A stretch of 64,000 nucleotides of DNA from a virus: the IMG/VR virus record IMGVR_UViG_3300045988_162215; one strand, 5' to 3'. Below are positions 3,477 to 62,042 of this stretch, piece after piece. How positions within the stretch are numbered: the first letter of the stretch is position 1; each line of letters starts with the position of its first letter. Under the pieces are notes generated by a model. That model did no database searches, had not been told where the DNA came from, and worked only from the letters and a program-made list of their open reading frames with translations. Both the position numbers and the translations under genes were made by a program.

Positions 3477-3505
3477 ATTATACCATATTTTTATTAAAAA
3501 CACAA
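3477..3505 (-). promoter_or_regulatory. sigma-70-like promoter (TTGTGT-N17-TGGTATAAT)
   Basis: Conserved extended -10 family. Confidence 0.45.
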
Positions 3506-3530
3506 ATAAGGGTAGCAATAAAGCTACCCT
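3491..3530 (-). terminator. intrinsic terminator (9-bp GC hairpin plus U-tract)
   Basis: AAGGGTAGC-AATAA-GCTACCCTT followed on minus strand by a U-rich run. Confidence 0.5.
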
Positions 3531-3961
3531 TGTAAAATTGATTGTGGTAAATATAAAATTTCTCTATTTATTTGTTTTGCATATTCAATAGTATTATAAG
3601 TTCCACCAAATTCAATGCCATCCCAAATAGCTAATAAAATATCACAATTATCAACCATATATTTATCTCTAATAAAGTAATTTTCCTTATGATATTCTTC
3701 ACTTACCATATAAATCCAAGAATCTTCCATAAGATATTCTTCAAATGGATGGTATTTTTTTCTCTTATATGGTAAGCAACAAACAAGAGGAACATTAAAT
3801 TCTTTAGCTACTGAACCAAAAATCTGATCTGCTCCTTGAGCCATGCCGCAATACGCTTCAGAAAAATTGTATATCTGAAATTGCTCTTCTATCCACGCGC
3901 GGACCTCTGCTTCATGGCCCCTTAATCTTTCGGGTCTATGCCCTGTTAAAGCTACCTTCAT
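3524..3961 (-). CDS. SLOG-family protein (DUF1273/YpsA-like)
   Basis: N-terminal KVALTGHRP motif and overall pattern of YpsA/DUF1273. Confidence 0.45.
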   Translation of the reverse strand: MKVALTGHRPERLRGHEAEVRAWIEEQFQIYNFSEAYCGMAQGADQIFGSVAKEFNVPLVCCLPYKRKKYHPFEEYLMEDSWIYMVSEEYHKENYFIRDKYMVDNCDILLAIWDGIEFGGTYNTIEYAKQINREILYLPQSILQG

Positions 3962-3973
3962 ATATATATCCTC

Positions 3974-5758
3974 CTAAAATATAAAAGCTACACTATCTAC
4001 TACTTCATAGTCAACTAAAAGGAGCTGTGGATTGCGGCTGCCGCACCATTCATTAACTCTACATTGACAAACAGCATTTATTTCAACAAATCCATTTTCT
4101 GAATATAATTTATTAAACTCTTCTTCATCCGTTCCAAATTTTATAATTGAACAATTATTTGGTAAAGATATTTTTATAGTTGTGTTTTTAAGAAGTTGAA
4201 TCATGTCTTTTGTTATTTTTAGGTTTTTAATATATACAAACGGTTCATCAATATCCTTGCCCCATAAATAATCATGGTCAGCTATTGATATAATTGCATC
4301 AGTATCTATGTTATTTTCTTCAAAAATATAATCTACCCAATAAATAGGCTCATCAGATATATCTTTTAATGCTTCATTTGTTTTTTCAAGAAAAGCAAAA
4401 ATATCCTCTCCTTGAACCTCTTCTGCTCCTGGTTCAGAAAATCTAATACCTAAGCCAAAAGCTCCTTGGTGTCCCTCTTCGTAAAGCGTACAACCGGTTT
4501 CCGTGCATATATCTTTAAAATTATTAACTCCAGTTCTATCACATCCACGAGCCGAACCCTGATAAGATACAGCTCCATCTCCATCAACTACTTTTGTTAA
4601 TATACAACATGGTCGCTGATATTTTGCCATAAACTTATTTGCTATCAACCCAGCTATGTTTTTATCAATCTCTCCAGGATTAAGTAAAAAAAGTAAAACT
4701 TTGTCGTCTAACAAGTGTTTTTCTTCAATTAAACTTTCAAGATGTTCCATTCCTTTATCCTGAGCTTTTGTTTGTCTATTTTTAACATTAGTTACAGTTC
4801 TTAAAGCCTGATCAAGGATAGTTTCTTTTTCGCCAAAAGCATGTCCTCTTTTAGTCGAATCAACTTCTTTAAAAGCTTCAAATTTGAGCATTGATTTAAA
4901 CAAAAGATTTTTCTCTTCTTCGGTTCCACTTCTTACCATTGCATTAACAAAAGGTGCAATATAGAACGCGGCGCCCATTGGTGTAATCCTAGTACCCAGC
5001 TTAAAAGAATTCTTTTGCGCCATCCCATGTATAAATGGATTCTTTAAATTTAATGGCTCAAAGCCTTTATTTATAAGATGTTTAGTTTCTAAACTTTTTA
5101 AAGACATCATATCTGCTAAATTACCTAATGCAACTAAATCTAAATAATCATTAGCATTTTCTTTTTTAAGTAAGCTATCTAAATATCGACAAAATTGCCA
5201 GACTATTCCGACACCTGAAAAATCTTTATTTGGATAATTACTTAATTGATTGTTTATTATAATAGCATTTTCTGATATTTTATCTGCTTCATGGTGATCC
5301 AAAACTACAACCGGGATTCCTAAAGAATGAAGTTTTTCATGTTCTTCATAATCATTACTTGAGGAGTCTGGGCATATAACCAAACTAAAATCAGATGCAA
5401 GGTCGACACAATCACTTAAACCATGTTGCTTGCCAGAATGTATAAACCAAGATAAATGATTAGATACCCAATTTGGAAATGTATCATAAAGATAATTTAT
5501 TAAAAGAGCTGAAGATGTGTATCCATCACAGTCACTATCCACAACTATCAGTGCATTATCGTTCGCTCCAATGCAACTAACAACCGCGGTTGCCGCAGCT
5601 TTTAATCTATCTTCACCTAATGATAAAGGACTATTTATGTCATCATCTGTTGTATTTAAGTAGTGCTGCAACTCTGAAGATTTTATTCCTCTATTAACTA
5701 AGACCCTATTGATTGCAGGGGTTTCTTGATTAAAAGGATCATATAACTTAACTTTCAA
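3974..5758 (-). CDS. RecJ-like DHH-family single-strand exonuclease
   Basis: DHH motifs VVDSDCDGYTS and VVLDHHEAD, DHHA1-like region, then a C-terminal extension. Confidence 0.6.
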   Translation of the reverse strand: MKVKLYDPFNQETPAINRVLVNRGIKSSELQHYLNTTDDDINSPLSLGEDRLKAAATAVVSCIGANDNALIVVDSDCDGYTSSALLINYLYDTFPNWVSNHLSWFIHSGKQHGLSDCVDLASDFSLVICPDSSSNDYEEHEKLHSLGIPVVVLDHHEADKISENAIIINNQLSNYPNKDFSGVGIVWQFCRYLDSLLKKENANDYLDLVALGNLADMMSLKSLETKHLINKGFEPLNLKNPFIHGMAQKNSFKLGTRITPMGAAFYIAPFVNAMVRSGTEEEKNLLFKSMLKFEAFKEVDSTKRGHAFGEKETILDQALRTVTNVKNRQTKAQDKGMEHLESLIEEKHLLDDKVLLFLLNPGEIDKNIAGLIANKFMAKYQRPCCILTKVVDGDGAVSYQGSARGCDRTGVNNFKDICTETGCTLYEEGHQGAFGLGIRFSEPGAEEVQGEDIFAFLEKTNEALKDISDEPIYWVDYIFEENNIDTDAIISIADHDYLWGKDIDEPFVYIKNLKITKDMIQLLKNTTIKISLPNNCSIIKFGTDEEEFNKLYSENGFVEINAVCQCRVNEWCGSRNPQLLLVDYEVVDSVAFIF

Positions 5759-5950
5759 TTATCTAACAGCCTCCAATACTATAACATTACTGCATTGCGG
5801 ACATTTAATAGTTTTTCTCATAGAATTATATTCTTTATAAGGATGATAATTACCCATTATCTCTATATCCTCTTTCTCAAAACTAAAAATACATCCACAT
5901 TTTGAACATTGCGTTTTTTGTTTTGTTCCCTTTTCTATTATATGTATCAT
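5759..5950 (-). CDS. zinc-ribbon protein
   Basis: CSKCGC...CPQCSN four-cysteine ribbon. Confidence 0.35.
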   Translation of the reverse strand: MIHIIEKGTKQKTQCSKCGCIFSFEKEDIEIMGNYHPYKEYNSMRKTIKCPQCSNVIVLEAVR

Positions 5951-9230: not shown

Positions 9231-9259
9231 ATTATATCATATTTTTTATTAGAAATCAA
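9231..9259 (-). promoter_or_regulatory. promoter TTGATT-N17-TGATATAAT
   Basis: Consensus family member upstream of 8669..9196. Confidence 0.55.
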
Positions 9260-9286
9260 AAAAGAGTTGCCATATAGGCAACTCTT
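9250..9286 (-). terminator. intrinsic terminator
   Basis: AAGAGTTGCC-ATAT-AGGCAACTCTT plus TTTTTTGATTT on the minus strand. Confidence 0.55.
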
Positions 9287-9297
9287 AATTATTTATG

Positions 9298-10239
9298 TTA
9301 TTTATTAGCTTCAACGAGTTTTTTAAGGTCTAAAACAATTAAACTCAAAGCTTCTGCCTGATCTCTTGTTGCTTTAGCTACAGTTTTCCCTTTACCAAGA
9401 TATTTTTCAACAATCTGGCTAATGCGCGGAGCCCAGAAGCTTCTAAATTTCTGACCATCATCTGTTTCTCCACTTTGGTCTGAAGAACCTGGAATATTAG
9501 CGACAATACTATTAAACTCTGAATATAATTTATCAAAGTCTAAATCTGCGGAAGCTTGGTTAATATTTACTCTAACATCTGTAAAATATTCTTCACCATC
9601 TTCTTCCATCTGCTTATCAATAGCTTCTCCAATAGCATTAACTAAGTTCTGATAACTTAAATCAATGTAATCTGGAGTGTATTTAAAACGAGACCCAGCT
9701 TCATATCTTGAAGTACCTCTCATAAACATAACAACTTTTTCAGACGAGCCATCTTGGGTTGGTACTGAACGAGTATAGCCTATGATATCGCACATTCTAG
9801 CAATAACATTATTTGCACGCTTATCAAGAGTAGGTACAATCTTATTATACTGCTGTCCGCCTTCATTTGTAAAAGTCTTATCAGTTTCATGTGAAATGAC
9901 AACTAAACCATAATCTAACTGAACAATTTTTCTTAGACATTCATCAAATTCTTTTTCGATCATGCCATAACCTTTACCAAAAGGAATGTCTGATACGGTA
10001 TCTGCATCATTATTACTGCATACATACTTTGAGCAGTAATCATAAGCAATATCAGCAGTATCAATAATTATAGTTTCGAATCTTTTCTTCGCATCATCTG
10101 TATTTAACTGCGTTAAAACTTGGCGGAATTCACTCCAATTATTTATTGGCTGAGCCATTGCGCCAGGGATGGCAGAGTAACCTTTCTCAAAGGCTAGCAA
10201 AAGGTGACCAGGGAATTTGACTGCGGTAGTGGTTTTACC
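9298..10239 (-). CDS. AAA_24/Sak4-like recombination ATPase, exon 2
   Basis: Begins in-frame GKTTTAVKFPGHLL with no start codon of its own (the tracked ORF used TTG at 10200). Contains IIIDTADIA....VVISHETD, typical of AAA_24. Confidence 0.55.
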   Translation of the reverse strand, partial: GKTTTAVKFPGHLLLAFEKGYSAIPGAMAQPINNWSEFRQVLTQLNTDDAKKRFETIIIDTADIAYDYCSKYVCSNNDADTVSDIPFGKGYGMIEKEFDECLRKIVQLDYGLVVISHETDKTFTNEGGQQYNKIVPTLDKRANNVIARMCDIIGYTRSVPTQDGSSEKVVMFMRGTSRYEAGSRFKYTPDYIDLSYQNLVNAIGEAIDKQMEEDGEEYFTDVRVNINQASADLDFDKLYSEFNSIVANIPGSSDQSGETDDGQKFRSFWAPRISQIVEKYLGKGKTVAKATRDQAEALSLIVLDLKKLVEANK

Positions 10240-11288
10240 CAGATATGTTATCGCAAAGGCTTTTTATCCTTTGCTTCTTATGGTTTCCCATAAGTTCAGC
10301 GTACCCTCTTATCTCTACTTAAAGAGATATTAGACTCTCTTGGATTTATTATATTCTAAAAATTTGTTATGTTTTCTTTCTAAGTAAATGCTATCTAATG
10401 AATAAAGTTTTTCAAACAAAGGTACTGAATAAATTGTACTAATAGAAAATTCCCATAAACCTCTATTATCTTGGTTTAAACTACTAGGTACATTTAGAAA
10501 ATTTTTTATATCTTCTAATAATTCAGACCTATGCGCACATAATCTAAATCTACAATAATCTTTATCAATAGAAATAGTGCCATCACCATCAAAAAAACCT
10601 AAAATAAAAGCATATGTTAAGTTTTTATCTTCAAATAATGGTAAATGCATTTCTTTATAAGTTTTTCTATTTACAATACCAAATTTACTTAAAGCTTCTT
10701 TTTGCGGTCCGCTACTCCAGTTTAAACGAACAACAGAAAAACCGTTACCAGTTTCTCTTTCTATAATAGGATTTTCTATTTCAAGTTCTTTTTTTATTTT
10801 TTCTAGAATCTCTTTATCAACTGCGGATAATTCTATATTGATCCTATTCCTATCTTTTTCAACCCAACCATCTGCTGCAATAAAACCTAAAATCCAAGCT
10901 TGTGTGGGCGTTTTTATATCATTAAAATATGTATGATTAACACTTTTTGCTCTAGCAGCATTTGAAATTTGATTCTGTTGAGCTTTTGTTCTTATTTGAA
11001 CATTATTAGATTCTAATATTTTTTTGACTCTATATGGAGTAATATTAAAAATTCTTGACAGTTGAGCCATAGAAGCTCCATTTGTATATTGTAAAATTAA
11101 TTCGTTGATGTCCATATCTGTAAACATACTCCTTAACAATTTTTAGTTTCAAAATCCACGCGTTGCGCGTGTTGCTTATTTTACTAAACAACTTCCGCTA
11201 GGATTGGCATGAGATATATAATCTTTTAGCTTTCCCTCTTTTAGTCTAATGTTTGCTTTATAGTTACCTATAAAGAGACCAGTTATTT
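10240..11288 (-). mobile_element. group I intron (inferred) carrying a LAGLIDADG homing endonuclease gene, inserted in Walker A codons of the ATPase gene
   Basis: P1-like pairing of exon AGACU with intron GGUCU including a U.G wobble at the splice site. P2-like hairpin CTTTATAG-GTAA-CTATAAAG. The intron ends ...AUAUCUG before exon 2 GGUAAAACC. Splicing restores the P-loop YGGWKT|GKTTTA. Confidence 0.55.
10330..11139 (-). CDS. LAGLIDADG homing endonuclease (double-motif), intron-encoded
   Basis: Two LAGLIDADG motifs: LGFIAADGWV and LGFFDGDGTI. Confidence 0.8.
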   Translation of the reverse strand: MLRSMFTDMDINELILQYTNGASMAQLSRIFNITPYRVKKILESNNVQIRTKAQQNQISNAARAKSVNHTYFNDIKTPTQAWILGFIAADGWVEKDRNRINIELSAVDKEILEKIKKELEIENPIIERETGNGFSVVRLNWSSGPQKEALSKFGIVNRKTYKEMHLPLFEDKNLTYAFILGFFDGDGTISIDKDYCRFRLCAHRSELLEDIKNFLNVPSSLNQDNRGLWEFSISTIYSVPLFEKLYSLDSIYLERKHNKFLEYNKSKRV

Positions 11289-11375
11289 AGTCTTCCAACC
11301 ACCATACAAAAACACAGAATAGCCTCTCATATCTCTACTTACCTGATGTGGTTTAATATCCATAATATTTAACAT
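11289..11375 (-). CDS. AAA_24/Sak4-like recombination ATPase, exon 1 (29 codons, ends inside Walker A)
   Basis: RBS AAAGGAG, then ATG, then MLNIMDIKPHQVSRDMRGYSVFLYGGWKT. Stop codons follow immediately. The last exon nucleotide is U and pairs with an intron guide sequence (AGACU/GGUCU). Confidence 0.5.
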
Positions 11376-12516: not shown

Positions 12517-12545
12517 ATTATACCAAAAATTTTGAAGTTAATCAA
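12517..12545 (-). promoter_or_regulatory. promoter TTGATT-N17-TGGTATAAT
   Basis: Upstream of 11520..12473. Confidence 0.55.
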
Positions 12546-12922: not shown

Positions 12923-12942
12923 CCTTTTTTAGTATATTATAA

Positions 12943-12970
12943 TTATATCATATTTTTTAATTAAAGTCAA
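12943..12970 (-). promoter_or_regulatory. promoter TTGACT-N17-TGATATAAT
   Basis: Upstream of 12548..12922. Confidence 0.55.
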
Positions 12971-15783: not shown

Positions 15784-15812
15784 ATTATACCAAAAAATTT
15801 TTAAGAAATCAA
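15784..15812 (-). promoter_or_regulatory. promoter TTGATT-N17-TGGTATAAT
   Basis: Upstream of 15448..15723. Confidence 0.5.
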
Positions 15813-16032: not shown

Positions 16033-16061
16033 ATTATATAAAAAATTTTATATTTTTTCAA
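16033..16061 (-). promoter_or_regulatory. promoter TTGAAA-N17-TATAAT
   Basis: Upstream of the small ORF 15810..15988. Confidence 0.5.
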
Positions 16062-18046: not shown

Positions 18047-18076
18047 ATTATATCAAAAATTTTTTAATTTTTCAAT
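18047..18076 (-). promoter_or_regulatory. promoter TTGAAA-N17-TGATATAAT
   Basis: Upstream of 17242..17973, just after the terminator of the topoisomerase operon. Confidence 0.55.
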
Positions 18077-18108
18077 AAATTAAAATAAAGCGCGGCTTCC
18101 GCCACGCT
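18077..18108 (-). terminator. intrinsic terminator after the topoisomerase genes
   Basis: AGCGTGGC-GGAA-GCCGCGCT plus TTTATTTTAATTT on the minus strand. Confidence 0.55.
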
Positions 18109-22365: not shown

Positions 22366-22394
22366 ATTATATCATATTTCTATTTATTTGTCAA
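22366..22394 (-). promoter_or_regulatory. promoter TTGACA-N17-TGATATAAT (perfect -35)
   Basis: Upstream of the gyrB-like gene. Confidence 0.6.
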
Positions 22395-22928: not shown

Positions 22929-22980
22929 TTTTGTTTTATTTTTTTCTCCTTTAATAGTATAACCTAAAATTTTTTGGTTG

Positions 22981-23205
22981 TCAATATTTCTTCACAATTT
23001 GAAGTGCCATATCATTCATAGGCATTACTAAAATTTCATTTTTTGGGAAAAACTCTTGTACCGTTTTTGCATATTTTGTCCCATCAACAAAATCAATTTC
23101 ATCTAAATTAACATGAAGTACAACTACGTCTCCCGGATTAACTGATAAAGTATTCAAACTTAGCTTTAGAGAATTGTTATTGATTACTTCTATACTTTTT
23201 ACCAA
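22981..23205 (-). CDS. hypothetical protein
   Basis: ORF with promoter upstream. Confidence 0.35.
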   Translation of the reverse strand: MVKSIEVINNNSLKLSLNTLSVNPGDVVVLHVNLDEIDFVDGTKYAKTVQEFFPKNEILVMPMNDMALQIVKKY

Positions 23206-23268: not shown

Positions 23269-23297
23269 ATTATATCATAAAATTTGATAATTTGCAA
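23269..23297 (-). promoter_or_regulatory. promoter TTGCAA-N17-TGATATAAT
   Basis: Upstream of 22981..23205. Confidence 0.5.
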
Positions 23298-25861: not shown

Positions 25862-26350
25862 TTATTTTGTTTTATTCTGTTTCTTTTTTCTGTCAATAGC
25901 ATTAGTTACAATATCTCTCTGTTTAATAGAGAAGAAAATATCATCTTCAAGGTCAAGCTTTTCATTCTTTAAATTATTTAATTTTCTAGTAAGAATATTA
26001 AACTGTCGATAGAAAATCTTTGCGGATTTTTCTTTAGGATCCCAACCTTTTGTTGATTGGCAAGCTGCAAGTAGATTCTGGTATATCTTAAACTGCTTTT
26101 TTGTATCTGCAATTTCATAAATTAAAGCATTACGAACTGCCCGCTTATAAGCAATAGTCGCTCCAAAGAGATAACTTTTTTTCTTATTATCTTCTGGATG
26201 AACAAAGCACTTTCCTCTAAAAAGCTTATTCTTATAGCTAATTATAACATCTGTTCCATTAAAAGAATCGCTCCATCCTTCACTTACAATATGAAATTTT
26301 CGTTCAATAAACTTTTTCATTATATTATCTCCTTTATAAATAGTTTTCAC
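25862..26350 (-). CDS. hypothetical protein
   Basis: ORF only. Confidence 0.35.
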   Translation of the reverse strand: MKTIYKGDNIMKKFIERKFHIVSEGWSDSFNGTDVIISYKNKLFRGKCFVHPEDNKKKSYLFGATIAYKRAVRNALIYEIADTKKQFKIYQNLLAACQSTKGWDPKEKSAKIFYRQFNILTRKLNNLKNEKLDLEDDIFFSIKQRDIVTNAIDRKKKQNKTK

Positions 26351-26894
26351 ATTCTTTTACCTTTGTAAAAATTTCTTCAATAATATCATCCAATAAAATT
26401 GGAGTTGAATTATGTGAATCTACTCCTACATGATACATATATGGTCTATCTTCATAAAAGTTGGTCTGCTGGTGCGTGTGACCGAACAAATTGATCACAC
26501 ATTGTTTGATGCTTTTGTCACTAAGATTCGCGGTTAGGGTTGGAAAATGAGAAAGATAAAAATTCATTTTTTTATACTTAATCATAGTTGCCCACCCCTC
26601 CAAAGTTACATTAGGAAGGGTGTCATAAAGTTTCCATCTAGCATCTGTATCATGGTTTCCTCTAATAATATGGATATCTCCGTTTAATTTTTTAAGACAA
26701 TCCATACCATTTGTGCTATTTCCGAGCATAACATCGCCTAAATGATAAACAGTATCTTCTGTAGAAACTACTTCATTCCATTTCTTAATAATATCTGCAT
26801 CATTTTCCGCGGCACTGGCGTACCCGCGCGGACCCCAAATAAATTCTCTATCATGTCCAAAATGAGTATCGCTCGTAATCCAAATCTTTCCCAC
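26334..26894 (-). CDS. calcineurin-like metallophosphoesterase (phosphatase)
   Basis: SDTHFGHD, GDVMLGN, GNHD motifs. Confidence 0.7.
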   Translation of the reverse strand: MGKIWITSDTHFGHDREFIWGPRGYASAAENDADIIKKWNEVVSTEDTVYHLGDVMLGNSTNGMDCLKKLNGDIHIIRGNHDTDARWKLYDTLPNVTLEGWATMIKYKKMNFYLSHFPTLTANLSDKSIKQCVINLFGHTHQQTNFYEDRPYMYHVGVDSHNSTPILLDDIIEEIFTKVKECENYL

Positions 26895-27407: not shown

Positions 27408-27669
27408 TATAAACCAACTCCTTTAATTGACCATATGTTCTTATACGATTACCATTTTCATCAAAATTATGATTTTCAAATTCAAATAGAAAATCATTAT
27501 AAGTATAAGAACCTTTACACTCTACATGATTAACTTCTTTTTGACACTTTAAGCAGAACAGCTTTTTTAAATGTCCACCTTCGCGTTCTGCGCCTTTCTT
27601 CCTAGGAATGGGAATCCCGCGGCTGCCGCACGCAGTACAATATAAATCTGATATTATTGTTTTTATCAT
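27394..27669 (-). CDS. zinc-ribbon protein
   Basis: CTACGS...CLKCQ. Confidence 0.35.
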   Translation of the reverse strand: MIKTIISDLYCTACGSRGIPIPRKKGAEREGGHLKKLFCLKCQKEVNHVECKGSYTYNDFLFEFENHNFDENGNRIRTYGQLKELVYNDKK

Positions 27670-27678
27670 TATATATAA

Positions 27679-27984: not shown

Positions 27985-28024
27985 ATAATTTTATCAACCC
28001 TTTCTTTATTCATATTATGTATAT

Positions 28025-28053
28025 ATTATATCATAAAATTTATAAAAAATAAA
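28025..28053 (-). promoter_or_regulatory. extended -10 promoter (TGATATAAT, weak -35 inside terminator U-tract)
   Basis: Upstream of the GNAT gene. Confidence 0.4.
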
Positions 28054-46695: not shown

Positions 46696-46752
46696 TTATT
46701 TAAGCTCCTATTGTTTTTCTTTTATTATAGCAAATTTTTATAAAATTGTCAA

Positions 46753-51201: not shown

Positions 51202-51370
51202 TCCTTTACCTCCTTTATTTCAAATTCTTCTAAGTAAATATGAAAATTAGGGACATAAAAATATAGGTAATTACCCAAACCTATTTTTGGATTAAAAAAG
51301 TTCAAACATCCATTTTGGTTCAGGTGTACGAGTGTCTGCGCTCCGAGCAGATTCTGCACTCTTGTTATCT

Positions 51371-51408
51371 AAATAAAAAAAATGGAGTTTCTTAGTCAAA
51401 GAAACTCC
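51371..51408 (-). terminator. intrinsic terminator closing the tRNA array
   Basis: GGAGTTTCTT-TGACT-AAGAAACTCC plus ATTTTTTTTATTT. Confidence 0.6.
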
Positions 51409-51436: not shown

Positions 51437-51510
51437 TTGAGGAGGAGAGACTCGGACTCTCGGTCTTTCGCGTATCAGACGAATGCTTTAACCATCTAAG
51501 CTACTCCTCA
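51437..51510 (-). tRNA. tRNA-Ile (anticodon GAT)
   Basis: Acceptor TGAGGAG/CTCCTCA. Anticodon stem TTCGT/GCGAA with loop CTGATAC. T arm GAGAG-TCCGAGT-CTCTC. Confidence 0.55.
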
Positions 51511-51511
51511 G

Positions 51512-51573
51512 CGCTGCACACAGGATTCGAACCTGCAAAGCCTTTCAGCTCCCTCACCACCCGGACATACAGC
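51512..51573 (-). pseudogene. degenerate tRNA-like element (62 nt; intact T arm and acceptor, defective D and anticodon arms)
   Basis: T arm GCAGG-TTCGAAT-CCTGT and acceptor GCTGTAT/GTGCAGC. Anticodon region GGAGC-TGAAAG-GCTTT has a 6-nt loop. Confidence 0.4.
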
Positions 51574-52356
51574 ATACATTTTAGAATTAAAAATTTTATT
51601 TTAATTTCCTTACTTAACGCCTAGACATTGTTAAGGGGTCTGCGTTGCCGCACCATCTTCCTTTATTTCCTCATTCCATAAAAATAAAATTTTAATTCTT
51701 CAACTCGGTACTTTTCATCTCAACTTCTAATTTGCCTAGATAGTAACCGATAATTCTTATTAAGACCTGAGATAGTCGATCAAATATTTTAATCTAAAAC
51801 CGGCAATAGTTAAAAGATTAAGTCCGTTATAGTTACGAACCCACAACTCGAAATTTCATTTCCTACCTCTTATTAGCGTGGGTGGGCGTCGCCGCACATA
51901 AAGTTATGTTTAATGGAAACTTTATGTTATAAACCATATAATATGGAACTGCATTGGGTGTAAGTTATCCTACTTTAGACTCTTACTCGACTCAAGGTCA
52001 ACGCCATTCTTCATGGATGCTTTTGCAGCGGCTCTCGTCGCTATATTCCATATACTACACTTATTTTTAGCAGTAGTCGCATAGCTTTCTTTTATAGTCT
52101 GTTTGGCTGCCGACTTTCTATCGCGTTTTTGTTCGCATCACCCTGGGTACTGATAGACATTTCGCGCTCCCATTGAACCAGCTTTGAATTTAAGACCTAC
52201 ACTGTGTGGCGAGATCTATGGTCTTTAGTTTATTCAACTAATGAGCGTTATGCACTCTGCTCTCGCTTTTCAGTCTTATTTATATCTAACGGGCTTCCTG
52301 CACCTAACAGGATAATTAAGTAGGAGATCTTTTAGACTAACACCCGTTAGAAATAA

Positions 52357-53443: not shown

Positions 53444-53515
53444 TTCTTCAGGTTAGATTTGAACTAACAGCTTTGGTTCTGTAAACCAATGTTTTATCCA
53501 TTAAACTACTGAAAA
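53444..53515 (-). tRNA. tRNA with anticodon ACA (Cys-decoding position; unusual A34)
   Basis: D stem GTTT/AAAC. Anticodon stem TTGGT/ACCAA with loop TTACAGA. T arm GTTAG-TTCAAAT-CTAAC. AT-rich acceptor TTTTCAG/CTGAAGA. Confidence 0.45.
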
Positions 53516-53815: not shown

Positions 53816-53848
53816 ATAATTATCAGCCCTTTCTTTAACTTTCTATAA

Positions 53849-53877
53849 TAATTATATCAAAAATTTTATTATTTTTC
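53849..53877 (-). promoter_or_regulatory. promoter TTGAAA-N17-TGATATAAT plus RBS cassette
   Basis: Upstream of 53516..53815 and the downstream tRNA. Confidence 0.55.
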
Positions 53878-53879
53878 AA

Positions 53880-54153: not shown

Positions 54154-54231
54154 AAAATATAAACTAGACACTAATATTTAATAATTGATTTGTCTTTTAA
54201 TTCTTTAATATTATAGCTGTATGTATCTAAA

Positions 54232-54303
54232 TACTCCCGACAGGATTTGAACCTGCATAGCGTGCCTTAGAAGGACACTGCCTATCCATTAGGCTACGGA
54301 AGC
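54232..54303 (-). tRNA. tRNA-Arg (anticodon TCT)
   Basis: Acceptor GCTTCCG/CGGGAGT, D arm GCC-TAATGGATA-GGC. Anticodon stem GTGTC/GGCAC with loop CTTCTAA. T arm GCAGG-TTCAAAT-CCTGT. Confidence 0.65.
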
Positions 54304-54307
54304 AAAA

Positions 54308-54380
54308 TACGGGTGGTGAGATTCGAACCCACACTTGACGAGGCTTAAACTCGTTGTCTCTGCCGTTGGACTACACCCGC
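54308..54380 (-). tRNA. tRNA-Leu (anticodon TAA) with atypically short variable region
   Basis: Acceptor GCGGGTG/CACCCGT. Anticodon stem ACGAG/CTCGT with loop TTTAAGC. T arm GTGGG-TTCGAAT-CTCAC. Variable region only 5 nt. Confidence 0.5.
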
Positions 54381-54668
54381 TTATCAGGCTAGCTGCAGTG
54401 GTATCGAGGAATTGCACCCCGGTTTCCTCTTTATAAGGAAGGCGACTTATCTAGTTAGTCGAATACCCTAGCCTATAAAAATGGCAGTCCACTCTTCTGC
54501 CGATTTAATGAGTTTCTTGCTTCTCCTGCGCAAGGCTTAATTAAATGCTTTATTCTAGGTGTTGTCGCGACACGTCACTAGAAAGAGTGTTATAATAAAA
54601 CTAAGCACATAAAATTTTTAGATTTACAATCCAAACCATCTTCTTTAAAATTGCTGTTTGTGCTTAAA

Positions 54669-54743
54669 TGGGCGGAGAGGGAATCGAACCCACTCGGGAC
54701 ATAAAGCCTTCGGTTTTATTCCTCGTCCGAGATTTGAACTCGG
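54669..54743 (-). pseudogene. two tandem tRNA 3' fragments (T arm plus acceptor 3' strands) at the 3' end of ORF 54716..55129
   Basis: CCGAG-TTCAAAT-CTCGG-ACGAGGA (overlaps the ORF's last codons) and GTGGG-TTCGATT-CCCTC-TCCGCCC-A. Confidence 0.5.
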
Positions 54744-55129
54744 TATTTATATGTTTGAAACCCTTGATTATTTGCATTTGGCTCTGTTCTTAATCTTATA
54801 GATTTTCGATTTTGCTGAATATCTTTTATTGGTATTAGCCACATATTCAAATCTTTGTTTACACAAAATAAATAATCAAGCTCAGAATGGTTTAAAAGAT
54901 TATCATAAACACCGCCATTTGTACCTCCAGTGGAACGAAAATCAATATCTCCATTTTCAGTTTGAGTAGCCTTACATTGGACAGTATAAAATTTTCCATC
55001 TTTTTCAACCACTAAATCATACCACTGAGTGTCATTTATTGGAAGAGATATTGTATATCCTTGACAAGTGAAATAATTTATTGCCATACTTAAACCAATT
55101 CTTCCAATTTGTTTTCTGTTAGTTTTCAA
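54716..55129 (-). CDS. PD-(D/E)xK-like nuclease-fold protein (TTG start) inserted between halves of a tRNA-like gene
   Basis: Paralog of 52568..53002. RBS AAAGGAG. Flanked by complementary acceptor strands GGGCGGG (upstream) and TCCGCCC-A (downstream). Confidence 0.45.
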   Translation of the reverse strand: MKTNRKQIGRIGLSMAINYFTCQGYTISLPINDTQWYDLVVEKDGKFYTVQCKATQTENGDIDFRSTGGTNGGVYDNLLNHSELDYLFCVNKDLNMWLIPIKDIQQNRKSIRLRTEPNANNQGFQTYKYRVQISDEE

Positions 55130-55191: not shown

Positions 55192-55213
55192 TTAATTTTT
55201 ACTTTCTATAAAT

Positions 55214-55242
55214 ATTATATCAAAAATATTTATGAAAATCAA
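55214..55242 (-). promoter_or_regulatory. promoter TTGATT-N17-TGATATAAT
   Basis: Drives the tRNA 5' half plus PD-(D/E)xK ORF transcript. Confidence 0.55.
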
Positions 55243-55454: not shown

Positions 55455-56115
55455 ATATTATCATTTACTAATTTAATATTCTCAATAAAAACAAAATAAA
55501 ATAGTTCTTCAACTTACTAAACATATCTTCAAAATTATTACTCTACATAGGAGATAAAGGCTGAGCAAGGCTAGCTAATTCCTTACTTCTTTACCCCAGC
55601 ATAATTGCCATGTCTATGACAGGATTGATTACCTATACCTTTCACTTAAACCATTCAGCATATATAATTTTATAAAAAATTCTTCATTCTTTAATCTTTT
55701 AATGAAATTAAATATCTGCACTTTGCATTAAGCTACTTAGAGTTGCATACAGTTCTTATATCAACATTTCTGTTGTTTCATTGCAAAACGGATTATTGGT
55801 ATTTCCTAGGATTGACTTTGAGTACCACCTCGCCGCCCTAACTAGGAGAGGAAAGCATTTCTGCTAACTTTCTATTGCTCCGCCGAACCGCGTCCTGAGC
55901 TATTTTGCGATATATCTAGTGCCATGACTTTACTTTGGGTTTCCAACCTCTTCATTTCAGTATCACTACTTTCAATGCGGACCACTATCCACAAGTATCC
56001 TTGTTTCGTTCGTGCCGAGCTCTTTTCGCCATGCCTTAGCTGTGTGGTTAGCACATCTACACTAAGATATTCATTTTGTTTTTATTCAGAATATTAAATT
56101 TTCAATGAACATAAA

Positions 56116-56188
56116 TGCTGCCCCTAGGAGTCGAACCCAGTGTCATCGGATATAAGCCGATTCCCCAAAACCGTCGAGGACAAGCAGC
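56116..56188 (-). tRNA. tRNA-Ile (anticodon TAT, AUA-decoding)
   Basis: Acceptor GCTGCTT/GGGCAGC. Anticodon stem ATCGG/CCGAT with loop CTTATAT. T arm CTGGG-TTCGACT-CCTAG. Confidence 0.5.
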
Positions 56189-56579
56189 TAGTTGCATTAC
56201 TGCTCCATTACGCGCACCTGTCTACGCAACTTCCGCACTACGCCTGGACACTTGATATTCTTAGGATTTTCTTCAAGTGTTGCCAATCTATTCTTTAAAA
56301 TTGCTAATTTCTGTTCTCTTGTCATAATATCCAATCCCTTTCTATTGTTATATAATAGATCCAATCCTGCTGGTTATTAGCAAGTAAACATCGTTCACAA
56401 ACCAGCTGGATCTATACCACATTTTAGACAGTAGCCGCCTGTACGCTTCACCACTCACGTACCTAGGAGAATTTCTGCATTTTGCTTTCAATCTAACAAA
56501 ACAACTCTAAAACTAAAACAACTTTACTTACTGTTTAAGTTGAATCAGAGGCTAATTTGATTAACTTGCATATAAGTAG

Positions 56580-56930: not shown

Positions 56931-56979
56931 TTTCTAAAGTGACTAAAGTCGCCTTCCATAATTACATCTCCTTTTCATT

Positions 56980-57008
56980 TACTATAATAATTATATCAAA
57001 AATTTTTA
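56980..57008 (-). promoter_or_regulatory. promoter TTGATT-N17-TGATATAAT plus RBS cassette
   Basis: Upstream of tRNA-Phe, tRNA-Glu and further tRNAs. Confidence 0.55.
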
Positions 57009-57186
57009 TGAAAATCAATTAAATTGCTTTTTGTCTATGTATTCAAGAAGCATAACTTGGATACATAAGGTGAGCTAGTACGTCAACTCCACACATCTCA
57101 ATCTAACGGCATATCTTAGACATCTTTATTCATCATTTCGTATGATAGGAGTGAGGGAAAGCTATACTCGACAATCTCTCCTATAA

Positions 57187-57260: not shown

Positions 57261-57413
57261 GACGGTTATGCTTCCTTTTACACCAATGCCGCAAATGTAC
57301 TTATTGCAGTAAGTACACCGAGTTATTTTGGCTTTTTCGTATAATATACTGCAATATATCATTGACTAATATCAACCAAACAAGTCCTTCGACTAGTACT
57401 CCGCACGCAGACC

Positions 57414-57485
57414 TTAATTCGGTCCGGAGGGAATCGAACCCTCATAATCTTCTCTTATAACTCTACCAAACTCCTCGTCGTTGGC
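57414..57485 (-). pseudogene. degenerate tRNA-like element (T arm GAGGG-TTCGATT-CCCTC, acceptor TGGTCTG/CGGACCG, no foldable anticodon arm)
   Basis: As described. The anticodon region TAGAG-TTATAAG-AGAAG does not pair. Confidence 0.3.
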
Positions 57486-57619
57486 AGACCACACTTGCTT
57501 TACACCAGAGGTTTAGTGATGCCCCTCTATCATCAATGGCTAACTTTGTTTTTTACACCGGAAGGTTCCGCCGCACCCACCATCAACACTCATTAACAGC
57601 GAAGTTCACCTAGAGTAAA

Positions 57620-57692: not shown

Positions 57693-57916
57693 ATATTAAA
57701 GAGAGCAACCACGAAGGGATAGTCTAGGAAGATTTCACGCTCTCACGCGATAATTATTTCTCAGATTTTTTATATTGCGATCACTGAGAAATGAACAAAT
57801 TATCAACGATTTTTTCTCGCCCACTAAAAAGACCGCGATTTATTACTACAACTTATTGTCGCTTTTGCCCAGATAGGTTAGTAAGTTGCAACTACGTACG
57901 CCCTATCAAACGTTAA

Positions 57917-57988
57917 TTCCGATTATGTGAATCGAACACATATTACCGGGTTACAAAGCCGGGGTTCTAGCCTTTGAACTAAATCGGA
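57917..57988 (-). tRNA. tRNA-Thr (anticodon TGT)
   Basis: Perfect acceptor TCCGATT/AATCGGA, D arm GTTC-AAAGGCTA-GAAC. Anticodon stem CCGGC/CCCGG with loop TTTGTAA. T arm ATGTG-TTCGATT-CACAT. Confidence 0.65.
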
Positions 57989-58005: not shown

Positions 58006-58034
58006 ATTATATCATAAATTTTTTATTTTTTCAA
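58006..58034 (-). promoter_or_regulatory. promoter TTGAAA-N17-TGATATAAT
   Basis: Upstream of tRNA-Thr, at the start of the tRNA array. Confidence 0.55.
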
Positions 58035-58099
58035 GTAGGTATTTTATTATCAAAAAACTTTTATTTTCTTTAATAACTCTTTACCAACTTTCTATAATA

Positions 58100-58128
58100 A
58101 TTATATCAAAAATTTTATTATTTTTCAA
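58100..58128 (-). promoter_or_regulatory. promoter TTGAAA-N17-TGATATAAT (tandem with 58006-58034)
   Basis: Second copy about 95 bp upstream of the first. Also carries the RBS cassette. Confidence 0.5.
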
Positions 58129-58940: not shown

Positions 58941-58972
58941 TTTCTTTCCACCTTTCTTAACTTTCTATAATA

Positions 58973-59001
58973 ATTATATCAAAAATTATTATTAAAATCA
59001 A
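58973..59001 (-). promoter_or_regulatory. promoter TTGATT-N17-TGATATAAT plus RBS cassette
   Basis: Upstream of 58599..58940. Confidence 0.55.
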
Positions 59002-59188: not shown

Positions 59189-59219
59189 AAATATCTTCCT
59201 TTCTTAACTTTCTATAAAT

Positions 59220-59248
59220 ATTATATCAAAAATATTTATGAAAATCAA
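59220..59248 (-). promoter_or_regulatory. promoter TTGATT-N17-TGATATAAT plus RBS cassette
   Basis: Upstream of 59006..59188. Confidence 0.55.
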
Positions 59249-59720: not shown

Positions 59721-59753
59721 ATTTATTCCTTCCTCTCTTAACTTTCTATATAT

Positions 59754-59782
59754 ATTATATCAAAAAAATTAAAAATAATCAA
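59754..59782 (-). promoter_or_regulatory. promoter TTGATT-N17-TGATATAAT plus RBS cassette
   Basis: Upstream of 59250..59720. Confidence 0.55.
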
Positions 59783-61449: not shown

Positions 61450-61492
61450 AATTTAACAACTCCTTTTCTATTTTTCTATTGTTATTATATCA

Positions 61493-61523
61493 TAAAAAAA
61501 ATAGGAAGTCAATTCGACTTCCT
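61493..61523 (-). terminator. intrinsic terminator after 61536..61958
   Basis: AGGAAGTC-GAATT-GACTTCCT plus ATTTTTTTTATG. A -10 element TGATATAAT immediately follows. Confidence 0.55.
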
Positions 61524-61535
61524 ATTTTAGTCTAA

Positions 61536-61958
61536 TTACTCTGGTGAGCCATCCTCTGTAACCTCATTCTCATCCACCGTAGCCAAACGGTATCCCTTAA
61601 CCTTACGCTTACCATCTTCAACGTCATCCTTAATAGCAACTCCAGCCTTTACAAGCTGTGACAGTCTAGCCTGTACCTTTGCTCTTGTAATCTCCTCGCC
61701 CTCAATCTGAGAAGTGATGGCATCAATAGTCTGAAGTTCATCAGTAAGAACAGCCTCTACCTGAGCTCTGAGTTCGTCACCAGCCGCGCGCTTCTTTGCT
61801 GCACTCTTCTTCGCGGACTCCGCCTTCTTATCCAGCTCTGCGATTCTTGCGTCAATGAATGCCTGAACATCAGCAACTGCAACTCCATCAACAGACTCCA
61901 TTGATGCGATAGCATTTGAAATTGCGTTAAAATAGTCTCTCTTAGTCATCTTTTCCAT
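61536..61958 (-). CDS. small winged-helix-like protein (paralog family, GC-rich)
   Basis: EITRAKVQARLSQLVKAGVAIKDDVEDGKRKVKGYRLA pattern. Confidence 0.4.
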   Translation of the reverse strand: MEKMTKRDYFNAISNAIASMESVDGVAVADVQAFIDARIAELDKKAESAKKSAAKKRAAGDELRAQVEAVLTDELQTIDAITSQIEGEEITRAKVQARLSQLVKAGVAIKDDVEDGKRKVKGYRLATVDENEVTEDGSPE

Positions 61959-62013
61959 AGTATTTTCTCCTTTTTCTTTTTTGTTTTGTTTTTTATCTCT
62001 TTTGTATGTATAT

Positions 62014-62042
62014 ATTATACTACTAATTTTTTAGAAAATCAA
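62014..62042 (-). promoter_or_regulatory. promoter TTGATT-N17-TATAAT
   Basis: Upstream of 61536..61958. Confidence 0.5.

Follow-up and report, generated by a model that had tools for sequence, protein, structure and literature searches.

A promoter-like sequence recurs upstream of genes along one strand of a 64-kb stretch of DNA (the window) from an uncultured gut or rumen phage of about 140 kb, most of whose genome lies outside the window. The question raised by this locus is whether the copies form a real promoter family, which RNA polymerase would read them and which genes they would serve. A preliminary description gave the pattern as TTGAWW and TGn separated by 17 nt; in this form it has no match, since 17 bp is the spacer between the two hexamers, and 14 nt therefore precede TGn. 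When 13 to 15 nt are allowed, TTGAWW and TGnTATAAT are found together 16 times (0.10 expected), always at 14 nt and on the minus strand. The strict pattern TTGnnn-N14-TGnTATAAT has 24 matches, all on the minus strand, where 0.23 are expected and shuffled sequences give at most 2 each. TGnTATAAT by itself occurs 36 times where 8.7 are expected, and the minus strand carries 29 of these.

A weight matrix of 51 columns, trained on the 24 strict sites, retrieves 31 minus-strand sites, scoring 20–52 bits. The scores are bimodal: the interval between 6.2 and 20 bits is empty, and 6.2 is the plus-strand maximum. The same repeat family was recovered independently by a repeat finder. The hexamer spacer is 17 bp in all 31 sites, TATAAT and TTG are each present in 30, while TGn is missing in 6; the -35 is mostly TTGATT or TTGAAA instead of TTGACA. 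All 31 -10 elements fall outside coding and RNA features, which cover 87% of the window. Orientation strictly follows that of the genes, and at most sites 20–57 nt separate the predicted start from the start codon or tRNA. The range first proposed, 3477–62042, holds all sites except one further copy at 829–857. The sites are listed below; where no other evidence is named, they were found by motif and weight matrix.

62014–62042, minus strand: P62042, TTGATT-N17-TATAAT, no TG, before a 140-aa ORF (61958–61536); weight matrix (22.7 bits), consensus scan.
61484–61528, minus strand: terminator hairpin 61528–61498 (dG -15.8), whose descending arm is the -35 TTGACT of P61512 (TGATATAAT), with a 272-aa ORF and a 290-aa peptidase-like ORF downstream; motif and hairpin scan.
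59729–59782, minus strand: P59782, full cassette, TTGATT-N14-TGATATAAT-atatatAGAAAGTTAAGAGAGG, then the ATG (59720) of a 156-aa ORF; motif, weight matrix, repeat finder.
59195–59248, minus strand: P59248, full cassette with leader AGAAAGTTAAGAAAGG, before a 60-aa ORF (59188–59006); partner in the chimeric deletion of relative L007.
58948–59001, minus strand: P59001, full cassette before a 113-aa ORF (58940–58599), then 94-aa and 55-aa ORFs; other partner in the L007 deletion.
58080–58128, minus strand: P58128, orphan truncated cassette with leader AGAAAGTTGGTAAAG, followed by the next promoter and no ORF.
58006–58034, minus strand: P58034, tRNA-Thr (57988) 11 nt downstream.
56990–57018, minus strand: P57018, variant leader TATAGTAAATGAAAAGGAG, heading tRNA-Phe, two tRNA-Glu, tRNA-Ile, ROOL RNA and tRNA-Met.
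55198–55242, minus strand: P55242, cassette truncated after AGAAAGT, running into a split tRNA-like gene with a PD-(D/E)XK endonuclease ORF.
53826–53879, minus strand: P53879, full cassette, AGAAAGTTAAAGAAAGG, before a 99-aa ORF (53815–53516) and downstream tRNAs.
46724–46752, minus strand: P46752, TTGACA-N14-TGCTATAAT, hexamers 12/12 consensus, before a GtrB-like 378-aa ORF.
36900–36953, minus strand: P36953, orphan full cassette, AGAAAGTTGAGAAAGG, behind a terminator, no ORF after it.
36821–36849, minus strand: P36849, before tRNA remnants and tRNA-Gln (36748–36676).
36636–36664, minus strand: P36664, before a 91-aa ORF (36593–36318).
36016–36081, minus strand: terminator hairpin 36081–36045 adjoining P36044, before a DUF2828/DUF7788 489-aa ORF; motif and hairpin scan.
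34440–34492, minus strand: terminator 34492–34472, then P34468 (TTGATT-N17-TATAAT, no TG), before a 236-aa phosphatase-like ORF; weight matrix and hairpin.
33378–33429, minus strand: P33429, full cassette, TTG instead of TGn before the -10, leader AGAAAGTTAAAGAAAGG, before a 57-aa ORF, then an MVP-like 831-aa ORF; weight matrix.
30636–30689, minus strand: terminator 30689–30664, whose T-tract is the -35 (TTGTTT) of P30664, before the PTH2 ORF; motif and hairpin.
30140–30168, minus strand: P30168, no TG, before an HNH ORF, an 85-aa ORF and RNA ligase; weight matrix.
28025–28079, minus strand: terminator 28079–28050 overlapping P28053 (-35 TTTATT, TGATATAAT), with 101-aa, 91-aa, kinase, phosphoesterase and 162-aa ORFs downstream; weight matrix and hairpin.
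23269–23297, minus strand: P23297, before a 74-aa ORF.
22956–22984, minus strand: P22984, the weakest candidate (20.0 bits), TTGACA-N17-TATACT, no TG, before a DUF5662 ORF (Pfam match); weight matrix.
22366–22394, minus strand: P22394, before two topoisomerase II subunit genes.
18047–18108, minus strand: terminator 18108–18089, then P18075, before a 230-aa ORF and DNA ligase; motif and hairpin.
16033–16061, minus strand: P16061, no TG, before a 59-aa ORF; weight matrix.
15784–15812, minus strand: P15812, before a 91-aa ORF.
12942–12970, minus strand: P12970, before a 120-aa ORF with weak winged-helix Pfam matches.
12517–12545, minus strand: P12545, before a 317-aa ORF and an interrupted Sak4-like gene.
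9231–9286, minus strand: terminator 9286–9262, then P9259, before a 175-aa ORF and DnaB-like, primase and RecJ-like genes; motif and hairpin.
3477–3531, minus strand: terminator 3531–3508, then P3505, before two small ORFs and a Dda-like helicase; motif and hairpin.
829–857, minus strand: P857, before an ORF that continues past the left end of the window.

The repeats are a real family, as first described, here of 31 near-identical, putative host-type (sigma-A/sigma-70) promoter elements before non-structural genes and tRNAs. Firmicute sigma-A promoters often carry a TG one base upstream of the -10, where it matters for function, and extended -10 promoters of Gram-positive bacteria, with their "-16 region" (TRTGn), were reportedly described by Voskuil and Chambliss in 1998. 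The window is alike in this respect, with TGn in 25 of the 31 sites; the fit to TRTG is only partial, because the base before TG is usually T (TTTG or TATG).

In some sites the element continues into a conserved leader, AGAAAGTT(A)AGAAAGG. It is full at six of them (59782, 59248, 59001, 53879, 36953, 33429) and truncated at two (58128, 55242); cassettes 36953 and 58128 have no gene behind them. The long promoter and ribosome binding site cassettes of about 60 bp exist, but "9 or more" was slightly generous, one proposed example, at 56960–57010, having a different leader. Promoters starting with AGAAAG make up about 8% of those of the clade, and the cassette is best seen as a subclass, not a trait of the whole predicted promoter class. 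The leader is short, C-free, purine-rich and, by computation, essentially unfolded. Two stretches in it, arranged in tandem, are complementary to the 3' end of 16S rRNA: the first, UAGAAAG, at the predicted 5' end, pairs with -6.1 kcal/mol, and AAGAAAGGAAG pairs with the Firmicute anti-Shine-Dalgarno with -11.0 kcal/mol, both computed on an assumed host 16S rRNA sequence.

Conservation was evaluated in 74 related loci (1.26 Mb), fetched by protein homology, where 302 matches to the strict motif lie on the gene strand and 11 on the other. Promoter cores are 98.4% identical to those of relatives, against about 95% for aligned flanks and about 93% overall; core and leader of P59782 are 100% conserved in relatives L006 and L007. 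For the MVP-like ortholog, 32 of 43 loci feature a promoter-like site upstream, usually 33–62 nt from the start codon and farther in 7. Their leaders are varied, though purine-rich, and the exact leader is therefore not required for the class. That exact sequence is present in at least 120 metagenome stretches. In 135 unique metagenomic copies, conservation extends from about 3 nt before the -35 to the start codon, most often located 11 nt past AAAGG; the 126 ORFs that follow group into 61 unrelated families, mostly small (median about 65 aa). Matching contigs are binned with Clostridia MAGs, the only host clue, and no GenBank phage has DNA-level similarity to this phage. The promoter and leader design, as judged from these copies, is not specific to this phage. 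Identity of 19–21 nt across distant phages exceeds the known needs of RNA polymerase and ribosome, and may reflect an added function or recombinational spread.

Strong hairpins end between -15 and +13 nt from a -35 in eight cases (61528, 36081, 34492, 30689, 28079, 18108, 9286, 3531), with two more close by (8–10 in total), which bears out the reported adjacency of terminators and promoters. Promoter-bearing units include replication, nucleotide-metabolism, topoisomerase, ligase, RNA-repair, PTH2, MVP-like, small ORFan and tRNA/ncRNA genes; the 31 sites fit the distribution originally noted on the minus strand, before replication, metabolism, vault/PTH2 and tRNA modules. The element is missing, as had been reported for most of them, before endolysin, holin, phoH and tail-fibre genes. 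The exception is consensus site P46752, before the GtrB-like (glycosyltransferase-like) gene inside the tail-fibre block, because of which an "early only" assignment is not strict. Late-type genes lie directly behind terminators, with almost no space left for a promoter, so that they may be reached by read-through or antitermination just as well as from a late promoter of their own. A different late system had been proposed alongside a host sigma-A class: housekeeping consensus, co-orientation and gene classes speak for the latter, while the scan of the window found neither an alternative (late) promoter motif nor, among about 60 ORFs, a sigma factor.

Comparable arrangements are known. In T5-like phages (Demerecviridae), as predicted here, strong early promoters of the host sigma-70 type feature TGnTATAAT, their spacer and discriminator are rich in A/T, and the leader is short and purine-rich, with a Shine-Dalgarno sequence at its end; often, a terminator lies directly before the promoter. 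In the T5-like phage My1, terminator and -35 are followed by TGATATAAT and then atgtatataaatttgagaaaggaacatattATG, the sequence reading ...gggttttcttttaCTTGCTaaacagctaaaattTTGATATAATatgtatataaatttgagaaaggaacatattATG. The 38-nt -10 and leader of the window match hundreds of T5-like records at 85–89%. T5-like phages, however, form an unrelated family with Gram-negative hosts, their leader departs from that of the window at about 4 of 36 positions, and T5 temporal classes were mapped experimentally, whereas those proposed here are predicted from the sequence; the similarity may be convergence. In T5, host sigma-70 serves all gene classes, and early promoters share a class-specific discriminator, proposed as a handle for temporal control (PMC7472727).

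Arrays of small early genes, in which every gene has its own consensus sigma-A promoter and strong Shine-Dalgarno sequence, also occur in Herelleviridae (SPO1 host-takeover module, kayvirus LTR, sepunavirus Tre region, Enterococcus VRE9), for which a separate late promoter class is reported (PMC6445280; PMC13401047). In kayvirus 812, promoters for the host sigma lie in the long terminal repeats and the early regions, while late promoters form a class of their own (PMC6445280). Among cultured phages, Staphylococcus phage Twillingate and Enterococcus phage VRE9 have the same tatagaaagttaagaaaggaa leader as the window, in Twillingate together with the -10; the Twillingate match lies among CDSs, two of them annotated Tre/TreN in the record, a region expressed early in related kayviruses (PMC6445280). 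The exact leader, however, is found there in only 1–4 places per genome, and in Herelleviridae the late genes depend on phage-encoded sigma factors and their defined motifs, neither of which turned up in this window, where about 60 ORFs were scanned for such a factor.

Alternative readings differ in what they make of the cassettes. They might, tentatively, be mainly mobile modules like the promoter-early stem-loops (PeSLs) of T4-type phages, for which definition and mechanism are published (Arbiol et al. 2010, PMC2839356; Comeau et al. 2014, PMC4122927): through about 50 bp of shared sequence, the cassettes would serve the excision, insertion and exchange of the ORFans they flank, with promoter activity as the payload making modules self-sufficient. 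PeSLs, too, join stop codon, terminator hairpin, sigma-70-like early promoter, Shine-Dalgarno sequence and start codon in many copies, concentrated before small ORFans in plastic regions, where two copies can recombine so that the ORF between them is lost or gained and a chimeric element stays behind. Three such recombinants with chimeric promoters were verified here, in three lineages: L007/L227 have lost the 60-aa ORF 59188–59006 between cassettes, L227 does not have 2,425 nt (eight ORFs) present in L226, and L181 does not have about 320 nt present in L106. Relative L043 retains a 169-aa ORF behind the cassette orphaned at 36953, L006 retains full leader and ORF at the ortholog of P55242, and synteny with L006 breaks at 55198, inside the leader, and at 53879, exactly at the -35; 58128 is likewise an orphan, and one cassette precedes all 61 metagenomic families. 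The recombinants show that cassettes can be used for recombination, like T4 PeSLs. They are, however, a minor indel route by census. Of 46 indel events in a first census, 12 touch a cassette (16% of breakpoints, against 3.5% of all positions and 8.1% of non-ORF positions), but only 3 of 28 outside the window's own lineage; in a second, of pairwise indels at cassette-rich loci, 30 of 262 do (11.5%), above a uniform null of 8.8% but below an intergenic null of 19.7%. Most indels are clean insertions with 2–13 nt overlap, and many consist of an endonuclease gene or an intron; relatives also feature a two-ORF insertion inside the P30664 leader. Unlike in T4-type phages, which differ in phage group and host phylum, the hairpin accompanies only about one third of copies (30% of 141 metagenomic ones, an excess over the 4–11% of controls that favours the module reading), always upstream of or overlapping the -35, and is not G4...C4-rich.

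It is rather unlikely that the invariant transcribed AGAAAG-TTA-AGAAAGG is itself an early-class RNA signal. The 5'-terminal AGAAAG could bind the 16S rRNA 3' end and block 5'-exonuclease, in the style of STAB-SD or the polypurine stabiliser of phage SP82; a phage factor could recognise the shared leader and shut off early mRNAs, in the manner of T4 RegB and RegA; or a polymerase-binding protein could recognise the discriminator, a role proposed for T5 gpT5.026. The tandem pairing stretches, the first at the predicted 5' end, the spread of the same 19–21 nt before unrelated genes, also in Staphylococcus and Enterococcus phages, the T5 discriminator (PMC7472727) and the stabilisers cited in PMC3997798 agree with this. 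The pairing, however, depends on the assumed 16S rRNA, only about 8% of clade promoters start with AGAAAG, MVP-like leaders vary, and recombinational copying or a narrow optimum could also produce the identity; no candidate regulator appears among the window ORFs scanned. Recognition by a phage-encoded sigma factor or RNA polymerase is highly improbable. Large Firmicute phages such as SPO1 and kayviruses do encode sigma factors (PMC6445280; PMC13401047), which could also lie in the rest of the genome. The motif is nevertheless the canonical housekeeping consensus (-35 TTGnnn, 17 bp, TGnTATAAT), whereas kayvirus phage-sigma late promoters have no -35 (PMC6445280), and elements of this type are host-polymerase promoters in T5-like phages. 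Chance matches, or a repeat unrelated to transcription (replication iterons, packaging signals), have a negligible probability: loose matches are cheap in a genome of 68% A+T, where a generic consensus scan of 20 kb gives 137 promoter-like sites against 92 in shuffles, but the strict-site counts, with none on the other strand, placement in the 13% of the window without features, at a fixed distance from start codons, and conservation above flank level and across the clade contradict this reading.

Very probably, then, the repeats are strong extended -10 promoters of early and middle genes, with a short leader and a reused cassette subset, read by host RNA polymerase with its housekeeping sigma (sigma-A in Firmicutes); polymerase usage, start site, timing and strength we infer from the pattern and its statistics, position and strand, conservation and recombinant junctions. 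Each element would consist of a -35 (TTGATT, TTGAAA or TTGACx), an A/T-rich spacer always 17 bp long, TGnTATAAT and an A/T-only discriminator. The first transcribed nucleotide would be the A or G in TATAG|AAAG, 7–8 nt past the -10, and the resulting leader of about 20–30 nt would be unstructured, C-free and purine-rich, its end, AGAAAGGA, pairing with the 16S rRNA 3' end some 11 nt upstream of the start codon. In this way the phage would turn on its replication and RNA-repair genes, the tRNA/ROOL RNA array and small ORFans, each unit insulated by an upstream terminator hairpin, whose T-tract may double as -35. The identical 55–65-bp promoter and leader subset would be a portable expression cassette, reused before many unrelated small genes and occasionally, as a by-product, a site of homologous recombination deleting or inserting the gene between two copies. 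The family is a clean instance of a well-known kind of phage early promoter, and not a new system.

A repeated promoter, with a 17-bp spacer between the hexamers, is present in the window as previously described: TTGAWW-N14-TGnTATAAT occurs 16 times, against 0.10 expected, and the looser TTGnnn-N14-TGnTATAAT 24 times, against 0.23 expected and on the minus strand only. Taken literally, with N17 between TTGAWW and TGn, the pattern of the preliminary description has no match, its spacing notation being off. A weight matrix built from the strict sites retrieves 31 minus-strand sites, scoring 20-52 bits, and none on the plus strand of the window; on neither strand does any other position exceed 6.2 bits. 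The same family was recovered by an independent repeat finder. The sites recur, as reported, throughout 3477-62042, but one further site, 829-857, falls outside this range.

All 31 sites are intergenic, within the 13% of the window not occupied by CDS, tRNA or ROOL RNA, and for most of them the predicted start lies 20-57 nt before a start codon or tRNA. The -10 is TATAAT in 30 of the 31 sites and the -35 is TTGnnn in 30, with a 17-bp spacer in every case; TGn is found at -15/-14 in 25, the remaining six carrying TTA, TAG, TTG or GGT. Spacer and discriminator contain only A and T, in a position-specific pattern of T-run, A-run and T-run. Hexamers, spacing within 17 +/- 1 bp, TG and co-orientation with the units above chance are those of sigma-70/sigma-A extended -10 promoters. 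The adjacency to terminators also holds: eight strong hairpins end within a few nt of a promoter, with the -35 formed by the T-tract or an arm of the hairpin, and two more are close by. An inverted repeat between spacer and discriminator, considered as a possible operator, was rejected: it is found in 42 promoters, against 29.2 +/- 4.6 in shuffled pairings (maximum 43), a weak excess explained by paralogous copies.

The window has a G+C content of 32%, with all substantial ORFs on the minus strand and 17 tRNA genes. The gene map, drawn from PHROG and Pfam scans, is as follows.

62-58 kb, minus strand: small ORFan array
58-51.4 kb, minus strand: tRNA/ncRNA region
51.2-37.6 kb, minus strand: tail-fibre block; the holin comes next leftward
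Leftward of the holin: DUF2828/TROVE-like protein, phosphatase, MVP-like 831-aa protein, PTH2
Then leftward: RNA ligase, kinase/phosphoesterase, PhoH, endolysin
Then leftward: topoisomerase II, DNA ligase, ClpP-like protease, thymidylate-synthase-like protein
Left end of the map: Sak4-like, DnaB-like, primase, RecJ-like and Dda-like proteins

An RNA-related cluster (26334-35977, minus strand) groups the MVP-shoulder/Vault_3 protein of 831 aa, PTH2, DUF2828/DUF7788 (TROVE-like), RNA ligase, a polynucleotide kinase-like protein and a phosphoesterase; its MVP-like gene is kept in 45 IMG/VR loci, mostly at 54-69% identity, and at 99% in both close relatives. An 899-aa gene (46753-49452) holds 69-nt periodic repeats at 47472-48951 (minus strand); they are coding, the product being a putative fibre or adhesin.

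A near-identity search found no near DNA match among GenBank phages, and the phage is, as judged from this comparison, previously undescribed. Two IMG/VR contigs, 140 and 122 kb long, share about 92-96% identity with the window, and dozens of others, of 130-195 kb, have orthologs whose amino-acid identity is 54-71%. The 130-195-kb gut and rumen phage group also bears the ROOL RNA, tRNA arrays and the MVP-like/RNA-repair cluster. The contigs of the relatives come from gut and rumen and were binned with Clostridia. Exact matches to the cassette, the promoter plus a short conserved leader found at some of the sites, occur in genome assemblies on MAG contigs labelled Oscillospiraceae, Eubacterium, Lachnospiraceae, Acutalibacteraceae and others, many of them 140-185 kb long. 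The source is therefore taken to be a large, uncultured lytic phage infecting Firmicutes of the gut or rumen.

Promoter cores are 98.4% identical to those of relatives about 93% identical overall, the aligned flanks being about 95% identical. Related DNA totalling 1.26 Mb was gathered by way of two proteins and hence without selection for the motif; in it the strict motif occurs 302 times on the gene strand versus 11 on the opposite one. Of 43 loci with the MVP-like ortholog, 32 have a promoter-like site ahead of it, mostly 33-62 nt from the start codon and farther in 7; the leaders there vary in sequence, yet remain purine-rich and C-free.

The units behind the promoters are ORFan, tRNA/ROOL, RNA-repair, nucleotide-metabolism and replication units. 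The promoter is absent from the holin and, as anticipated, from endolysin, phoH and tail-fibre genes, the exception being P46752, which precedes a GtrB-like gene within the tail-fibre block. From consensus, position and conservation, we conclude that these elements are probably functional promoters for the host RNA polymerase, and we infer their start sites, timing and strength: transcripts would start at the A/G where TATAG meets AAAG, 7-8 nt past each -10, the expected RNA start being AGAAAGUUAAGAAAGG. The genes served fit an early or middle temporal class, an assignment that also leans on analogy with the Tre/LTR regions of Herelleviridae. In kayvirus 812, of 63 predicted promoters some are of a host-sigma class, in the long terminal repeat and early regions, and the others of a late, phage-sigma class (PMC6445280).

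The early or middle host-sigma-A reading first proposed is plausible and in part supported, by housekeeping consensus and gene content; for the separate late system that completed that proposal, neither a sigma factor nor a motif emerged from the ORFs and upstream regions scanned. Among about 60 window ORFs scanned against PHROGs and Pfam no phage sigma factor is detected, and k-mer enrichment in 284 promoter-less upstream regions of the clade gives no coherent late-gene motif. The gene starts concerned are the following.

51201, 45506, 25804, 24366/24435 and 15391, minus strand: late-type and some homing-endonuclease gene starts, behind strong terminators, without a sigma-A-type promoter

Downstream of the terminators only a T-tract and an SD are found, or more -35-less extended -10 sites; the terminator-to-SD gap at late-type genes is 10-25 nt, and about 180 nt for the first tail-fibre gene. 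This layout, terminator then SD, recurs in relatives. Late-type genes may be expressed by read-through or antitermination, or from an unrecognised promoter.

A conserved non-coding element of about 100 nt (51282-51381, minus strand) directly follows the terminator at 51410-51382, upstream of the first tail-fibre gene. It is found once per locus in about 17 relatives, and RNAalifold predicts no consensus RNA fold for it. In 5 relatives it is followed by a promoter-like site, TTGAAA-N17-TA(T/A)AAT, and by an ORF of about 126 aa, putatively CodY-HTH-like by eye.

At a subset of the 31 sites the promoter continues into a conserved leader. The cassette is real, but of the nine or more long copies first proposed only six have full leaders, with two truncated ones; at 56960-57010, cited as an example, the leader differs from the conserved type.

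59782, 59248, 59001, 53879, 36953 and 33429, minus strand: six full leaders, of type AGAAAGTT(A)AG(A)AAGG
58128 and 55242, minus strand: two truncated leaders

Only about 8% of the clade promoters begin with AGAAAG, and the cassette is therefore a subclass. Its 31-nt version is matched by 12 IMG/VR stretches, while TATAAT-N3-TATAGAAAGTTAAGAAAGG is found in 18 stretches of genome assemblies and in no fewer than 120 of metagenomes, the samples being from human gut and from rumen. Among the matches listed, 135 unique copies are conserved from about 3 nt before the -35 to the start codon, which most often lies 11 nt past AAAGG, and the 126 ORFs downstream, whose median length is about 65 aa, form 61 unrelated families. 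Promoter and leader thus make up a portable unit that has been put to use repeatedly, ahead of many different small genes. The leader is unstructured. With the anti-SD assumed to be the Firmicute sequence, its AAGAAAGGAAG pairs with the 16S rRNA 3' end at -11.0 kcal/mol, and UAGAAAG, at the predicted 5' end, pairs too, at -6.1 kcal/mol. The latter is a candidate counterpart of the STAB-SD/polypurine 5' stabiliser, an SD-like stretch near the mRNA 5' end which prolongs half-life and does not serve initiation. The cassette is a compact and probably very strong promoter and leader, and could serve as a Firmicute expression part.

One exact copy lies in a bacterial isolate genome, Dysosmobacter sp. 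Sow4_B12 contig00004 (locus L021, 1-1200). It precedes an 88-aa ORF in a low-G+C islet of about 0.9 kb, within a genome of 58-65% G+C, and the islet apparently adjoins a disrupted gene. This bacterial chromosome has thus received a cassette of phage type.

The composite features of the cassette resemble the promoter-early stem-loops (PeSLs) of T4-type phages. In both, a sigma-70-like early promoter carries an SD and start codon at its 3' end, and the setting is plastic and rich in ORFans: the dense cluster at 53.8-62 kb precedes ORFs without Pfam or PHROG match, in a region rich in indels. A stem-loop is found at 8-10 of the 31 window sites and in 42 of 141 metagenomic copies among the matches listed, versus 4-11% in controls; it is enriched, yet absent from most. 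PeSLs belong to T4-like myoviruses of Gram-negative hosts, whereas here no GenBank phage is a near match and the relatives are Clostridia-binned. As the phage group is different and the stem-loop not obligatory, the cassette is an analogue, not a member of the PeSL family. The 38-nt stretch of -10 and leader has 85-97% matches in 563 GenBank phage records, from T5-like phages of many Gram-negative genera, Lactococcus skunaviruses, Staphylococcus sepunaviruses and Enterococcus phages. T5-like phage My1 has the full architecture: terminator, -35, TGATATAAT, A/T-rich discriminator, aaatttgagaaaggaac and ATG. T5 early promoters share a class-specific discriminator, by which, it has been proposed, a protein that binds RNA polymerase would recognise them (PMC7472727). 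An identical tatagaaagttaagaaaggaa leader is present in Twillingate, a Staphylococcus phage, and in the Enterococcus phage VRE9; the Twillingate match sits among CDSs, two of which are noted as Tre/TreN in the record.

Three chimeric cassettes were verified. In L007/L227, loci related to the window, the upstream half of P59248 is joined to the downstream half of P59001, and the intervening 60-aa ORF is missing; in L227, two promoters of locus L226 are joined, with loss of 2,425 nt and eight ORFs; in L181, from an unrelated lineage, two cassettes of L106 are joined. These recombinants match the mechanism described for T4-type PeSLs (PMC2839356). Two cassettes in the window are orphans, for one of which the relative L043 retains a 169-aa ORF. 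Such events could suggest that cassettes are the main driver of indels. In 17 close pairs, 12 of 46 indel events touch a cassette, and 16% of the breakpoints fall at one, although cassettes take up 3.5% of all positions, or 8.1% of those outside ORFs. The loci rich in cassettes gave 262 pairwise events, of which 30 (11.5%) touch one; a uniform null predicts 8.8% and an intergenic null 19.7%. Over both censuses the cassette-linked share is about 11-25% and not above the intergenic null, which speaks against a main role, the individual events being real. Most indels are clean insertions with a few nt of overlap, and among these are endonuclease genes, in several cases, or an intron. Shuffling through cassettes does take place, then, but as a minor route.

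Other insertions are present as well. In L043 (12596-13322), two extra ORFs, one of them putatively pyrimidine-dimer glycosylase-like by eye, are placed inside the leader of the P30664 ortholog and so share the PTH2 promoter. This two-ORF insertion in relatives was rejected as a cassette event, featuring microhomology only and no second cassette. A free-standing HNH endonuclease gene (854-1825, minus strand) is replaced by 273 nt in both close relatives, its boundary falling exactly at the -35 of P857. The Sak4-like gene is split by a 1,051-nt insertion (10239-11290, minus strand) with a 265-aa endonuclease ORF (10330-11127); being absent from relative L076, it is likely a group I intron or homing-endonuclease insertion.

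The tRNA/ncRNA region has features of its own. A full-length ROOL RNA (55483-56090, minus strand; Rfam RF03087, 274 bits versus a gathering score of 99) sits in the tRNA array between tRNA-Ile(TAT) and tRNA-Met, with P57018 as nearest upstream promoter. A tRNA with anticodon CTA (amber-suppressor type, labelled 'Pyl' by ARAGORN) is located at 54231-54304 (minus strand), and unusual tRNA-Cys(ACA) and tRNA-Ile(TAT) are also present, with additional coordinates 53444-53515 and 56116-56188; stop codons in the window are ordinary (TAA 43, TAG 10, TGA 9), so there is no sign of recoding. P55242 runs directly into an apparent split tRNA gene (about 55190 to about 54650, minus strand), with 5' half GGGCGGGTAGCG... 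and 3' half ...GGTTCGATTCCCTCTCCGCCCA; the approximately 480 nt between them encode a 137-aa PD-(D/E)XK_5 endonuclease (54716-55129). It is probably an intron-containing tRNA; no intron model in Rfam matches there, and in relative L006 another ORF takes this place. Between tRNAs there are long non-coding gaps, relatively rich in G+C, at 51510-52356, 54380-54716, 56325-56579, 57362-57619 and 57693-57917 (minus strand), the largest of 845 nt. At E<=0.01 they have no Rfam match but a borderline tRNA-like one at 54400-54467 (28.9 bits, gathering 29); they could hold further structured RNAs or decayed tRNAs, in a region highly plastic between close relatives.

As a whole, the promoters belong to a long-known kind, the strong host-type early promoters of lytic phages, and leave knowledge of phage transcription unchanged. 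The leader string was not found in the literature searched. Added by this analysis are the wide occurrence of the exact cassette among uncultured phages of gut and rumen and its use before 61 unrelated, mostly small ORF families, together with the verified cassette-to-cassette recombinants and the close resemblance to T5-like and Herelleviridae early promoter-leaders. It is conceivable, if rather unlikely, that the promoter and leader, about 60 bp, form a shared 'expression adaptor' circulating among the large lytic phages that infect Firmicutes of gut and rumen, and carried in copies as far as phages of Staphylococcus and Enterococcus, new small genes being plugged in by homologous recombination and the invariant transcribed part marking mRNAs for common post-transcriptional control (stabilisation or shut-off). 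If true, T4 PeSLs would have a Gram-positive counterpart that acts at the RNA level as well. The 31 start signals and the unit boundaries set by terminators provide a ready-made transcription map of this genome, clearly split between promoter-bearing genes and late-type genes without promoter; in the uncultured gut and rumen phages of 130-195 kb, early regions, the orientation of genes and ORFan cassettes can be annotated cheaply by means of the motif.
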